Shown: piece by piece, positions 43,892 to 47,862 of the stretch
How positions within the stretch are numbered: the first letter of the stretch is position 1
Layout of the letters: each line of letters starts with the position of its first letter
Origin: Alphaproteobacteria bacterium
Lineage (GTDB): Bacteria; Pseudomonadota; Alphaproteobacteria; RF32; CAG-239
NCBI GenBank assembly: GCA_017961285.1
Contig: JAGCXO010000018.1
Location: 874 to 64,873, forward strand
Length of the DNA stretch: 64,000 nt
Direction of reading: 5' to 3'
Made by a program: the position numbers and the translations under genes
The notes under the pieces: generated by a model
Told to the model about the DNA's origin: nothing
Seen by the model: only the letters and a program-made list of their open reading frames with translations
Database searches by the model: none

Positions 43892-44059
43892 ATGGCAAAA
43901 GCAGTAAAGATAAAAGTAAAATTGGAAAGCACCGCCGGAACGGGAACATTTTACCTTGCGGAAAAAAATCCCAGAACTCATCCGGAAAAACTTACCTTGA
44001 AAAAATATGATAAAAAGAGCAAAAAGCACGAAGAATTTGTAGAAAAGAAAATGAAGTAA
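43892..44059 (+). CDS. rpmG: 50S ribosomal protein L33
   Basis: 55 aa from MAKAVKIKVKLESTAGTGTFY..KNPR..PEKL.LKKYD. Confidence 0.9.
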   Translation: MAKAVKIKVKLESTAGTGTFYLAEKNPRTHPEKLTLKKYDKKSKKHEEFVEKKMK

Positions 44060-44077
44060 TGCTCTCAGCTTCTTTAC

Positions 44078-44105
44078 GCCGGCATTTCAGCCGGCATTTT
44101 TTTTG
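44078..44105 (+). terminator. Rho-independent terminator after rpmG
   Basis: gccggc-atttca-gccggc followed by a T8 run. Confidence 0.75.
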
Positions 44106-44189
44106 CACCATAAACTTGCTTACACTCATTGACAGCTTGCAGTTAATATATTATCATCAACATAGTAAAATTTTATAGGATTTCAAAAA

Positions 44190-44615
44190 ATGGAAACACA
44201 ATATTATACAGTTGTTGAAAAACAAGACTTTTTCGAAATTATAGAAAATAAATATGGCGAATTGGCAATATTTATTGACGCTCGCGACGGCTCCCCAAAA
44301 AATCCTGTTCTATTGTTTGACGGCAAAAAAACAGCCCTCTTAAAACGTGATGACAGAATTGCCGTTCGCCTTGACAACATTGACGAAGAGACAAAGGCCC
44401 CTCTTGCCGAGGCAGAATTTGTTATGATCGTTGAACTTCAGGGCAAAATGGTTGAGCGCGTATATGCCGTTGAAGTTGATAATGTTGAAGAAATTGCCAT
44501 CAAAGGCAAACAAACTCGCGCTGATGAGCTTATTATGTCAAAGAACAAAGAAGATATCATCAAAAACTTTGGCGCAGTTCATTCTTGGATTGGCGGTTCC
44601 ACAAAAAAGAAATAA
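44190..44615 (+). CDS. Hypothetical 141-aa protein, paralog of the ORF at 41018-41311
   Basis: Own TTGACA/TATCAT-like promoter upstream. Aligns by eye with the 97-aa ORF and has an extra Lys-rich C-terminal tail. Confidence 0.5.
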   Translation: METQYYTVVEKQDFFEIIENKYGELAIFIDARDGSPKNPVLLFDGKKTALLKRDDRIAVRLDNIDEETKAPLAEAEFVMIVELQGKMVERVYAVEVDNVEEIAIKGKQTRADELIMSKNKEDIIKNFGAVHSWIGGSTKKK

Positions 44616-44623
44616 GGAAAAAA

Positions 44624-45022
44624 ATGTTAGGTTTGGTTTTAGTTACACATGGCAATTTAGCCAAAGAATTTGTGTCAGCAATGCAGCACGTTGCCGGCAA
44701 ACAAGAACAAATTGATACTGTTTGCATCGGTCCCGATGACAACATGGAATCCCGCAGAGAAGAAATTTTGCAAAAGGTAGAACAAGTAAACACCGGTGAA
44801 GGAACTATTGTCCTGACCGACTTGTTCGGAGGCACGCCGTCCAATTTGGCAATTTCGATAATGGATAAAGCAAAAGTTGAAATTTTAGCCGGCGTAAATT
44901 TGCCTATGCTGATAAAAATTGCAACTCTTCGCAAAAACAAATCTTTAAAAGAAACTGTTTTAGGCGCACAAGAAGCCGGCAAAAAATATATCAACATAGC
45001 TTCGCAACTTCTCGGTTCATAA
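44624..45022 (+). CDS. PTS EIIA component, mannose/fructose family (PTS-Ntr-type ManX-like)
   Basis: Start at MLGLVLVTHGNLA (phospho-His context) after an aaggaaa SD. 132 aa. Confidence 0.8.
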   Translation: MLGLVLVTHGNLAKEFVSAMQHVAGKQEQIDTVCIGPDDNMESRREEILQKVEQVNTGEGTIVLTDLFGGTPSNLAISIMDKAKVEILAGVNLPMLIKIATLRKNKSLKETVLGAQEAGKKYINIASQLLGS

Positions 45023-45026
45023 AGAA

Positions 45027-45296
45027 ATGTCAATAACTAAAGAACTTGAAATAAAAAATATAAAAGGAGTCCATGCGCGTGCCGCCGCCGCTTTTGTAAA
45101 ATTGGCGGAGACATTTTCATCAAAAATAGAAGTAGAGCGCATCGGTATGGTTGTCAGCGGCCTTTCGATAATGGGGTTGATGATGCTTTCTGCTTCAAAA
45201 GGAACAACCATAAAAGTAACCGCCTCCGGTTCCGATGAAAAAAAAGCTATGCAAGAAATCACCAAATTGATAGATAGCAAATTCGGCGAAGAATAG
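45027..45296 (+). CDS. ptsH: Phosphocarrier protein HPr/NPr
   Basis: 89 aa. NIKGVHARAAAAFV (His-15 context) and GLSIMGLMML (Ser-46 region). Confidence 0.85.
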   Translation: MSITKELEIKNIKGVHARAAAAFVKLAETFSSKIEVERIGMVVSGLSIMGLMMLSASKGTTIKVTASGSDEKKAMQEITKLIDSKFGEE

Positions 45297-45332
45297 TAAT
45301 ATCGTTTATACACTCTTGCAAAAAAACTTTTC

Positions 45333-45370
45333 GAACCTAAATCAAATATTGACTTTAGGTTCATTTTTTT
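45333..45370 (+). terminator. Hairpin plus T-run after ptsH
   Basis: gaacctaaa, a 12-nt loop, tttaggttc, then a T7 run. It ends directly at the SD of the micro-ORF. Confidence 0.55.
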
Positions 45371-45382
45371 AAGGAGTTTATT

Positions 45383-45496
45383 ATGATTTTTTATAACACA
45401 AAAAACAAACCGACGAAAGAAAACGAAACCACGCATAGCGGCTGTGGCTGCGGCGGCTGCGGTTGTGGCGGAAACAAAGGTTCCGAGCATAAATAA
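45383..45496 (+). CDS. 37-codon Cys/Gly-rich micro-ORF (not in the ORF track)
   Basis: AAGGAG 6 nt upstream of the ATG. Translation is MIFYNTKNKPTKENETTHSGCGCGGCGCGGNKGSEHK. A locally GC-rich patch sits in AT-rich intergenic DNA. Followed by a strong terminator. Confidence 0.4.
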   Translation: MIFYNTKNKPTKENETTHSGCGCGGCGCGGNKGSEHK

Positions 45497-45502
45497 AACA
45501 AA

Positions 45503-45526
45503 AGCCCGATAAAATTCGGGCTTTTT
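45503..45526. terminator. Bidirectional terminator between the micro-ORF and recF
   Basis: agcccga-taaaat-tcgggct with T-runs on both strands. Abuts the recF stop. Confidence 0.7.
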
Positions 45527-46742
45527 ACTTTTCTAATAAAGAATTATTTTTTAACTCAAAAAATTGAGCCTTATTTTTCAAACTTCCAAACAATTCGGGA
45601 TTCGTAGAAGTAATCCAAGCCTGCAAACCTAAATCCGTAATTTTCGACAACAATGCCTCTCTTTTAATATCATCCAAATGCGCTGCCACTTCATCCAACA
45701 AAAGGACCGGAGAAAAATCCTGATACAAAATCTGGCACTTGGTTTGCGCCAATATAATGCTGATCAACAAAGATTTTTGCTCACCGGTCGAACACAATTC
45801 AGCCGGCATATTCTTCTTTTTATAAAACACCTTAAAATCGGCACGATTAACTCCGTCAACATTTTCATTACACAAAACTTTGTTGCGCTCAGATGCCAAC
45901 TTTTGCATATAAAAATCCTCAACATCCACCGCAGGCAGTGTTGCCAACATTTTCTCGATTGTCCCGTCAAGCTGCAACTCAACATCAGGAAAAACATCAT
46001 CCGGCTCATTTTCAATAAAAGCATTAAGCCTGGCAATTTGCTCTCTTCTGGCCGCCGCAATGGCAACCCCCATAGCCGCCATATTTTCTTCGATTCCCTC
46101 AAGCCACAACTTGTCAACTTTGCCGTTGGAGTTTCTTATCAGCTGATACCATTGTTTATACAAACCCTCAAAAACCGCCGTTCTTTTGGCATGATCATTA
46201 TCAAAAGTATAAACCAACCTATCCAAAAAACTTCTTCTTGGCTGAGAGCCACCCCTAAACAATCTATCCATCTGCGGAGTTAACCAAATTGCTGAAAAAT
46301 AATTTCCCAGCTCCGCTTGAACAGAACTTCTTTGCCCGTCAATTTTTACGATTCGCTTATTATAAATTCCTGATTCGTCATTATCCTCTTTCAAAAAATT
46401 TTCAACTGCTGTTCCGATCTCAAATTCTTCTCCATTTTTGCTTATCATTGCCGAAACAGCCCACGAAGCATTTGAAGGAATATAATCATCACCAACAATC
46501 GCCGGTGAAATTCTCCTTATATCAGAAAGCCTTGCTCCACGCAAACCTCTACCCGGAGTCAAAAAAGAAATGGCTTCCAAAATATTTGTTTTTCCGCTAC
46601 CGTTATCACCGGTAATAACGATAGGACAAAGCTCTGATGAAATTCTCAATGATGCATAATTTCTATAATCAGTTAAAGTCAGGCGCTTCACACCTGACTT
46701 TTTCTGAGTAAGAAAATCTATATCTTGAGCCAAATTATTCAA
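45525..46742 (-). CDS. recF: DNA replication and repair protein RecF
   Basis: 405 aa. Walker A GDNGSGKTNILEAI, signature CSTGEQKSL, Walker B LLLDEV. Confidence 0.9.
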   Translation of the reverse strand: MNNLAQDIDFLTQKKSGVKRLTLTDYRNYASLRISSELCPIVITGDNGSGKTNILEAISFLTPGRGLRGARLSDIRRISPAIVGDDYIPSNASWAVSAMISKNGEEFEIGTAVENFLKEDNDESGIYNKRIVKIDGQRSSVQAELGNYFSAIWLTPQMDRLFRGGSQPRRSFLDRLVYTFDNDHAKRTAVFEGLYKQWYQLIRNSNGKVDKLWLEGIEENMAAMGVAIAAARREQIARLNAFIENEPDDVFPDVELQLDGTIEKMLATLPAVDVEDFYMQKLASERNKVLCNENVDGVNRADFKVFYKKKNMPAELCSTGEQKSLLISIILAQTKCQILYQDFSPVLLLDEVAAHLDDIKREALLSKITDLGLQAWITSTNPELFGSLKNKAQFFELKNNSLLEK

Positions 46743-46743
46743 C

Positions 46744-47862
46744 TTATACTCTCATCGGCATCAGCACATAAATTGCACTTGTATCCGAAATATCATGAAT
46801 AACCGAAGGAGAAGAAACATCAGAAAAACCAAACTGTGCATTCTCACCCTTAATCTCTGTCAAAATATCCAATAAATAGCGGAAATTATAACCGATTTCC
46901 AAAGATTCGCTGTCATATTTTGCATCAACTTCTTCCAAAGCCGACCCCAAATCAGGACTTGTAGTAGTGATAATAACCTTACCTTTCTCTACAATCATCT
47001 TAACCGCTCGTGTTCTTTCTGCAACAACTGACACGCGGTCAACAGCATTTGCCAAACCTTTTACGGAAACTTCCAATAACTTATCTGTATCCGTCGGAAT
47101 AACCCTTTCATAATCCGGATAGGTTCCATCAATCAATTTTGATGTCAAAATCACTTCTTCCAAAACAAAACGAACTTTATTATCCGAAACCGAAATTTCA
47201 ATATTTTCAGCCTTAGTATCATCAAGAAGCTTTCTGACCTCAGCCACAGTTTTTCTAGGAATAATAATTCCCGAAACTTTCTCAGCACCTTCAGCCAACG
47301 GAGTCTCTACACAAGCAAGTCTGTGTCCATCCGTTGCCACAACACGCAAAACCTTGGTTGTTCCCTCATTTTTTGCATGCAAATAAATACCATTCAGATT
47401 ATACCTTGTCTCTTCGGTAGAAACAGCAAATTGTGTCCTATCAATAATATCTTTCAATTCCTCACGTGCAATATTGAAAACTATCGGCAATTTTTCACCG
47501 GAAATAACCGGAAAATCTTCAACCCCAATCGTCGATAATGCAAACTTTGAACGACCGGAAGCAATACTCAGTTGACCTTTTTCATCAGGAAAAACTATCT
47601 CAACTTCAGCACCGTCAGAAAGCTTGCGCACAATATCATACATCATATGTGCAGGAGCAGTCGTAGCACCGGTCTCCGCAATTTTTGCATCAACAATTTC
47701 CGTAATTTCGGTATCCATATCCGTAGCCTTAAAGCTGATACCGTCCCCCATAGCCTCGATTCTGACATTCGACAAAACAGGAATGGTATTGCGCTTTTCA
47801 ACAATACTCTGAATATGACTTAAAGTTTTTAACAAAACCGCACGTTCAATAACAAATTTCAT
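46744..47862 (-). CDS. dnaN: DNA polymerase III beta sliding clamp
   Basis: 372 aa starting MKFVIERAVLLK, with a three-domain clamp pattern, in dnaA-dnaN-recF order. Confidence 0.95.
   Translation of the reverse strand: MKFVIERAVLLKTLSHIQSIVEKRNTIPVLSNVRIEAMGDGISFKATDMDTEITEIVDAKIAETGATTAPAHMMYDIVRKLSDGAEVEIVFPDEKGQLSIASGRSKFALSTIGVEDFPVISGEKLPIVFNIAREELKDIIDRTQFAVSTEETRYNLNGIYLHAKNEGTTKVLRVVATDGHRLACVETPLAEGAEKVSGIIIPRKTVAEVRKLLDDTKAENIEISVSDNKVRFVLEEVILTSKLIDGTYPDYERVIPTDTDKLLEVSVKGLANAVDRVSVVAERTRAVKMIVEKGKVIITTTSPDLGSALEEVDAKYDSESLEIGYNFRYLLDILTEIKGENAQFGFSDVSSPSVIHDISDTSAIYVLMPMRV

Follow-up and report, generated by a model that had tools for sequence, protein, structure and literature searches.

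Closely spaced cysteines serve as metal sites in several kinds of protein: metallothioneins bind metal through CxC motifs, the As(III) site of ArsR is CVC, and the high-affinity nickel site of Escherichia coli HypB is CXXCGC. Ligand-rich tails of chaperones and folding factors bind metal as well, copper in the case of Mycobacterium tuberculosis GroEL1 (PMC10170517, 10.1101/766162) and nickel in that of Helicobacter pylori GroES/HspA (PMC8779794), and the tails of SlyD provide a further precedent (PMC3292732). Hpn and Hpn-2 are small His/Cys-rich metal-storage proteins (PMC4671568), and Cys-Gly-Cys is known to bind nickel in an N2S2 arrangement, for example in models of the acetyl-CoA synthase (ACS) site (PMC13348028, citing Krishnan & Riordan 2004). 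Here we describe a 37-codon gene at positions 45383-45496 (+) of a 64,000-nucleotide stretch of DNA (hereafter the window; contig JAGCXO010000018.1, positions 874 to 64,873 of the forward strand, assembly GCA_017961285.1) from an alphaproteobacterium of the lineage RF32; CAG-239. Judged from sequence comparisons, its Cys-Gly-rich product belongs to a previously undescribed micro-protein family whose members occur only in a single family of gut Alphaproteobacteria, uncultured anaerobes with small genomes. By its composition, this micro-protein family is best seen as a lineage-restricted variant of the tiny, ligand-rich kind of protein. Our first choice for its function, held tentatively and at somewhat less than an even chance, is a free-standing micro-protein that may bind soft metals or metalloids through thiolates as a buffer or chaperone.

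Like the minimal metallothioneins, such as the 25-aa Cu-metallothionein of Neurospora crassa and MymT of M. tuberculosis (PMC3841717), the peptides of this family are tiny, lack a hydrophobic core, and carry Cys-x-Cys in a cytoplasmic, Gly/Ser/Lys/Asn-rich setting with a varying number of thiolate units. They differ from metallothioneins in ligand density (2-4 Cys per chain, or 7-11%, versus roughly 25-30%), in having a long Cys-free hydrophilic N-terminal half, and in matching no sequence family (seven members searched, Pfam with E up to 10, and PDB). The CxC units are present and invariant, yet with so few Cys per chain a cluster would need several chains. The Helicobacter proteins Hpn and Hpn-2 (PMC4671568) are likewise lineage-restricted, tiny, low in complexity, and rich in ligand residues, and the homolog of genome G282 is His-rich; however, most members of the present family have no more than two His, the genome carrying the window is without evident Ni enzymes, and there is no homology. 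With the ACS site and the CGC model peptides (PMC13348028), the family shares the identical C-G-C tripeptide. The sites of ACS and HypB lie within large enzymes or GTPases, so that the resemblance is one of motif and not of homology, and no ACS/carbon monoxide dehydrogenase (CODH) or [NiFe] hydrogenase was found in the genome carrying the window.

A micro-protein gene under purifying selection

The open reading frame (ORF) at 45383-45496 is, by its substitution pattern, a genuine protein-coding gene under purifying selection. In what follows, G000 is the genome carrying the window, G020, G009, G044, and so on are other genomes of its genus, and g18 to g28 are genus codes. An earlier note on this DNA, made from the letters alone, had proposed the micro-ORF together with a check of its frame in related genomes, and the outcome of that check is clear. 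In G020, another species of the genus, the 37-aa product is unchanged, and the two genes are separated by 15 synonymous differences and no non-synonymous one, while the HPr proteins encoded just upstream are only 89% identical between the two genomes; the ratio of non-synonymous to synonymous divergence (pN/pS) is 0 for the micro-ORF and 0.095 for HPr. Of 16 ortholog pairs compared, one is identical and 15 are informative; across these 15, pN/pS ranges from 0 to 0.25 and is no higher than that of HPr in 13 of them. A look-up of public contigs, which retrieves identical peptides only, found a gene call for the exact peptide on 12 contigs, which come from independent metagenomes and metagenome-assembled genomes. 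The eight contigs that were read represent, together with the window, five DNA haplotypes, and all 17 variable sites fall at third codon positions. HPr differs at 9-14 of its 89 residues among lineages that share the exact peptide. The note had also argued from a GC-rich patch that the Gly and Cys codons of the core are maintained, and this is borne out at the level of the protein: the residues are fixed and the codons vary.

Of the 29 genus genomes, 26 yielded HPr, and in counts over these related genomes, which are not independent samples, a complete ORF of 24-38 aa led by a Shine-Dalgarno (SD) sequence lies just after it in 22 of the 26, with a 23rd broken by a contig end. AGGAG stands 4-10 nt ahead of the start in all 22 complete orthologs, and each of them has its own terminator hairpin behind. 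The locus thus displays what is expected of a coding gene, that is, frame-specific substitutions and a start codon and SD conserved in orthologs.

The micro-ORF position is taken by unrelated GC-rich hairpin repeats in G010 (locus L016) and by a pilin-like gene in G017 (L035). In the G009-type clade (L019-L034), the synonymous divergence (pS) of the micro-ORF is far below that of the adjacent HPr, e.g., 0.06 versus 0.50 for G009/G023; this is unlike the clade of the window, and codon bias, RNA-level constraint, or recent exchange could be responsible.

Signals and layout of the locus

The features of the locus, in window coordinates, are as follows.

45383-45496 (+): micro-protein gene, 37 codons plus TAA, encoding MIFYNTKNKPTKENETTHSGCGCGGCGCGGNKGSEHK; identified by frame, SD, and conservation.
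45440-45472 (+): core GCGCG-GCGCG-G (residues 20-30), a tandem duplication of the invariant pentapeptide.
45371-45376 (+): Shine-Dalgarno AAGGAG, with a 6-nt spacer (TTTATT) to the ATG at 45383.
45316-45343 (+): promoter-like element inferred by conservation, with TTGCAA at 45316-45321, a 16-nt spacer, and TAAATC at 45338-45343.
45333-45370 (+): upstream hairpin GAACCTAAATCA-N5-TGACTTTAGGTTC followed by A and seven T, probably the intrinsic terminator that ends the EIIA-HPr operon.
45500-45525 (both strands): bidirectional intrinsic terminator common with the convergent recF, with a 10-bp stem, 5 GC pairs, and T-runs on either strand.
45027-45296 (+): HPr/NPr gene (PTS-HPr; Pfam PF00381, E 7e-27), the conserved upstream neighbor, given as context.
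45525-46742 (-): recF, convergent (Pfam SMC_N and AAA families).
45017-45490 (-): antisense 157-aa ORF opposite HPr and the micro-ORF, spurious.

The core is encoded as GGC TGT GGC TGC GGC, GGC TGC GGT TGT GGC, and GGA, which forms a GC-rich patch in a genome of 39% GC. The layout described in the earlier note was recovered when the sequence was re-read: AAGGAG lies 6 nt before the ATG, the SD follows directly on the upstream T-run, the frame has 37 codons, and it is set between two terminators. The upstream hairpin (45333-45362) folds at -12.3 kcal/mol (z -5.6), which none of 200 shuffles equaled; it carries a bulge and was skipped by a simple hairpin scanner. Counterparts exist in the G020, G008, G005, G015, and G042 clades, and the EIIA(Man)-HPr operon could credibly end at this hairpin and its seven T. 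The downstream hairpin, common with recF, reaches -15.5 kcal/mol (z -5.85) on the forward strand and -15.1 kcal/mol (z -4.3) on the reverse strand, and overlaps the recF stop. The neighbors are HPr and recF, and no maturation enzyme is adjacent, as had been noted. The 157-aa antisense ORF exists and is judged spurious, again in agreement with the earlier note, because it lies opposite HPr and the micro-ORF.

The note's view of transcription, in which no promoter was seen and expression might depend on read-through, found no support. A TTGnnn-N16-TA[AT]AT element is present 37-54 nt ahead of the ATG in 21 of the 22 orthologous intergenic regions, compared with an average of 0.36 loci in shuffled regions, and its spacing is fixed while the spacer sequences have diverged. 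Read-through would not be needed because this element is conserved in 21 of 22 loci, and we infer that the micro-protein gene has its own sigma-70-like promoter. The -10 box of the window, TAAATC, sits in the HPr terminator, within the left arm of its hairpin, and the sequence of that arm is probably conserved because the box is embedded there. Initiation at this element would produce a transcript of ~190 nt, from ~45350 to ~45535, independently of HPr read-through, and a start within the hairpin loop would allow the transcript to escape termination by that hairpin. The predicted 5′ untranslated region (UTR) is without significant structure (z -0.26).

Directly upstream of the EIIA(Man)-HPr pair, the window also contains a 141-aa ORF (44190-44615, +) without a Pfam match, which keeps its place on all eight public contigs examined and occupies the site where an alphaproteobacterial HPr kinase is expected.

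Anatomy and range of the family

An alignment of 14 distinct members leaves C-G-C-G as the sole invariant part, preceded by G in at least 90% of the aligned sequences. The number of Cys-Gly units is 2-4 and differs between species: the commonest core is CGCG, as in ...KKGGCGCGK, several members have CGCGCG, and the window and G020 carry the tandem pentapeptide duplication with four Cys. The N-terminal stretch is hydrophilic, rich in Lys, Ser, Thr, Asn, and Glu, and variable in length, with a loose ETKK motif within the genus only. A short and usually basic tail follows the core. Several members have an extra Cys at position 3-4 or a His next to the core.

Family members range from 24 to 64 aa. 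When the order was searched with a profile, at least seven further genera gave credible small-ORF members, usually ~1 kb from HPr; MSYSNTNKSTNEEKTNAENSSKKSGCGCGCGSK is an example. The longest, the G282 homolog of 64 aa, is rich in His (HSSIH..FEH..AHNENEHSH..EKHSSCGCGCG), and the versions in G108, G250, and G234 have an acidic C-terminal extension. In G138 (g25; locus L057, 361-1356), a gene for a CcrM-like adenine methyltransferase lies between HPr and the micro-ORF, and LolA-like and exonuclease III genes come after it. Sequences as short and as low in complexity as these make for a weak peptide profile, so that its lack of any match at E <=0.01 in 397 Alphaproteobacteria outside the family is, like the other absences outside the genus, a soft result. 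In a library of 1.84 billion representative proteins, the profile search returned three clusters; each belongs to this genus, and none bears a name beyond "hypothetical protein". One species' version occurs on at least 1,000 public gut contigs, and the locus of the abundant gut species is of the MNNETKKSASQEESSNQPKKGGCGCGK type. The peptide and six relatives matched nothing in Pfam or NCBIfam, even at E = 10, a PDB profile search of the family gave none, and no description of GCGCG or Cys-Gly-Cys small proteins like this family was found in the literature.

A Cys-Gly insert in the GroEL tail

A whole-genome scan for further CGC-containing frames led to the GroEL of G000 (contig C10:4900-6552, +, outside the window). 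An insert beginning KKECNCGCGCGEHG... stands at the start of its C-terminal tail, and the protein ends ...TEAPKKECNCGCGCGEHGAGAMPGGMGF. A Cys-x-Cys-Gly(-Cys-Gly)n tail was found in all 27 genus genomes with a GroEL match (loci L096-L160), in forms such as KKECHCGCGCGEGG, KKECGCGCGEGH, KKECHCGDDH, and QKECHCGCGG, and among 37 sampled genomes of the bacterial family, from 22 genera, 36 have a C-x-C-G(-C-G)n insert that frequently includes His. The inserted module can be written KEC-x-C-G(-C-G)n. Outside the family, five GroELs end in the ordinary Gly/Met tail, and the sister family has a single Cys. Some matches of the peptide profile in 550-aa frames likewise proved to be GroEL tails. The insert runs ...CGCGEG/H, which is similar to the N-terminal motif of E. 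coli HypB in its continuation CGCGEG.

As in GroEL1 (PMC10170517; 10.1101/766162) and HspA (PMC8779794), the chaperonin C terminus is here replaced or extended by a ligand-rich segment. It differs from those tails in being based on Cys-Gly instead of His and in keeping a GGM-like end, and from GroEL1 in standing on an apparently single groEL copy, not a paralog, with the micro-protein as a separate gene. Our literature searches turned up no account of a Cys-Gly GroEL tail, although none was aimed at Cys-rich GroEL tails themselves. The recurrence suggests that a (Cys-x/Gly)n module flanked by Lys, and often accompanied by His or Glu, is a lineage-wide functional device, of which the peptide, by its sequence, resembles a free-standing version. 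Peptide and GroEL motif do not strictly go together, as the latter is also present where no peptide was detected (g18, g19, G010, and G017).

Candidate functions of the peptide

Binding of soft metals or metalloids is ranked first because the invariant part of the peptide consists of Gly-spaced thiols, the number of these units varies in the manner of metal-binding repeat peptides, His occurs beside the core, and the module is reused in a chaperonin tail. The (Cys-Gly)n array would supply thiolate ligands to Ni, Cu, Zn, Co, Fe, or As, with the metal bound within one chain or by several chains clustering. In the cytoplasm, the small peptide would thereby buffer metal or function as a metallochaperone, and the hydrophilic stretch may serve merely for solubility.

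Several findings weigh against this assignment. Most family members have only two Cys, far under the density of metallothioneins; no metallothionein or any other Pfam, NCBIfam, or PDB family was matched, even at E = 10, and no metal-regulator operator was recognised upstream of the micro-ORF. The gene is dispensable, because three genus genomes that are at least 91% complete are without an intact copy. The gene is missing from G010 and G017, and the copy of G044 (locus L032, downstream of HPr) has decayed: its ATG has become ATA, it contains in-frame TAA stops, and its motif now reads ...QPKKSVCSCGK before a stop. In G000, searches for [NiFe] hydrogenase, CODH, and a clear HypB/UreG found none, so the inventory of metal-homeostasis genes proposed in the earlier note indicates no particular metal. 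The presence of heavy-metal-associated (HMA) domains across the bacterial family neither tracks nor complements the peptide.

The same gene search identified an [FeFe] hydrogenase in G000. The HMA domain was not found in G000 or in 24 of the 28 other genus genomes, and it was present in 13 of 14 control genomes. Two narrower proposals were dropped: a nickel-specific role has no backing in the gene inventory of G000, and compensation for missing HMA proteins does not fit genera that have both (g28 and parts of g25/g26) or neither (g18/g19).

The main rival, which we consider rather unlikely, is a redox-active or thiol-buffer peptide, in which C-G-C would form a strained 11-membered disulfide ring and the peptide would serve as an encoded low-molecular-weight thiol/disulfide exchanger. 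The invariance of the CxC core suits such a role, as does the identical motif in the GroEL tail, where the thiols would meet folding clients, and CGC peptides attributed to Woycechowsky and Raines in 2003 reportedly have PDI-like reduction potentials. A search for the GshB domain of glutathione synthetase gave no match in G000 and none in 65 of 71 sampled genomes of the bacterial family, so that the lineage is seemingly unable to make glutathione, but absence of GshB is common among anaerobes and is therefore unspecific. An anaerobic cytoplasm would have little use for disulfide isomerisation, ribosomal synthesis is a poor source of bulk thiol buffer, and the flanking His and Glu, together with the His-rich G282 homolog, fit metal ligation better.

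It seems unlikely that the peptide is a GroEL-linked factor, i.e., a free copy or mimic of the Cys-Gly tail that would share metal or a cluster with the tails or occupy the cavity floor. The modules are nearly identical (KKGGCGCGK in the peptide and KKEC-x-CGCG in the GroEL tail) and confined to the same bacterial family, and the clade with the longest GroEL insert (four Cys) has the peptides with most Cys, although this is a single clade. Against such a link, the tails keep the motif in the genera and genomes where no peptide was detected, the peptide gene has no genomic linkage to groESL, and the likeness may merely reflect shared ligand chemistry.

The earlier note had offered two kinds of reading, a ribosomally synthesized and post-translationally modified peptide (RiPP) precursor and a thiol-based metal-binding or redox peptide. 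The second stands as the best reading, and the first has lost most of its ground: a RiPP precursor, with a hydrophilic leader and a Cys-Gly core modified (to azoles, thioethers, or otherwise) by an enzyme encoded elsewhere, is now an improbable candidate, and the micro-protein is probably not an antibiotic-like peptide precursor. The size of the ORF suits a short peptide, G000 does encode radical S-adenosylmethionine (SAM)/SPASM proteins, and the layout recalls the Cys/Gly-rich cores of thiazole/oxazole-modified microcins (TOMMs) such as microcin B17, which are also short ribosomal peptides with a Gly/Cys-rich C-terminal part. Unlike precursors of TOMMs and linear azole-containing peptides (LAPs), however, the peptide has no conserved leader motif and no adjacent biosynthetic or export genes. 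The Lys/Asn/Thr stretch that the note had taken as a leader is low in complexity and unconserved between genera. YcaO (PF02624), the partner expected for a LAP or thiazole peptide, was not found in any of the 29 genomes of the genus, of which 24 reach 90% completeness or more, in a search with positive controls, and MbnB/TglH (DUF692, PF05114) was not found in G000, which is 92% complete. The radical SAM search gave SPASM genes in 9 of the 29 genomes, and these do not track the peptide: G020, with the identical peptide, is without a SPASM gene, and G017, with no peptide, has one. Those of G000 lie on other contigs, one beside a glycosyltransferase and two in tandem with their own precursors. 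Neither SCIFF nor any other NCBIfam family matched the peptide at E up to 10. The enzyme searches covered the YcaO, MbnB/TglH, and SPASM classes. The peptide gene also keeps a stable housekeeping position across the bacterial family, next to HPr, recF, and ccrM-like or lolA genes and never adjoining an enzyme or transporter of the RiPP kind, and GroEL carries the same motif and is no RiPP.

The tandem SPASM genes of G000 form a separate candidate RiPP cluster (contig C25, L037, 384-2742, -). The second of the two is split by TAG, and two near-identical 26-aa ORFs, MAQENKDTWKITMKNALEKGCLINYD and ...KTALEKGCLVNYD, precede the pair.

A regulatory leader peptide or attenuator, or a small RNA with an incidental ORF, is very improbable and already largely refuted by gene orientation and dN/dS, for although a terminator directly follows the short ORF, weak sub-threshold Rfam matches to Trp and rimP leaders occur (44000-47000 scanned), and the low pS of the G009-type clade (0.06-0.44 versus 0.50-0.61 for HPr) could hint at RNA-level constraint, no same-strand gene lies downstream (recF is convergent), the Rfam matches are far under gathering scores and cover the terminator only, the terminator is a simple hairpin, the 5′ UTR has no significant structure, and selection clearly acts on the amino-acid sequence over the entire ORF, beyond the Cys and Gly codons.

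Significance

Proteins of less than 50 aa are mostly missed by annotation, and this family has so far been named at most as hypothetical. A peptide of 24-37 aa built around C-G-C-G is also a simple, synthesisable object for the study of minimal metal or thiol sites. Taken together, the private (Cys-Gly)n thiolate module of the micro-protein and that of the cavity-facing GroEL tail may constitute a lineage-specific metal- or thiol-handling system, possibly for the folding of Fe-S proteins or metalloproteins, or in place of the glutathione and HMA-type chaperones that these bacteria, with their reduced genomes, mostly lack; we regard this as a minority possibility worth stating, and no comparable system is known to have been described. 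The GroEL Cys-Gly insert, if functional, would add never-cultured but common human and animal gut bacteria to the few organisms whose chaperonins have metal-binding tails.

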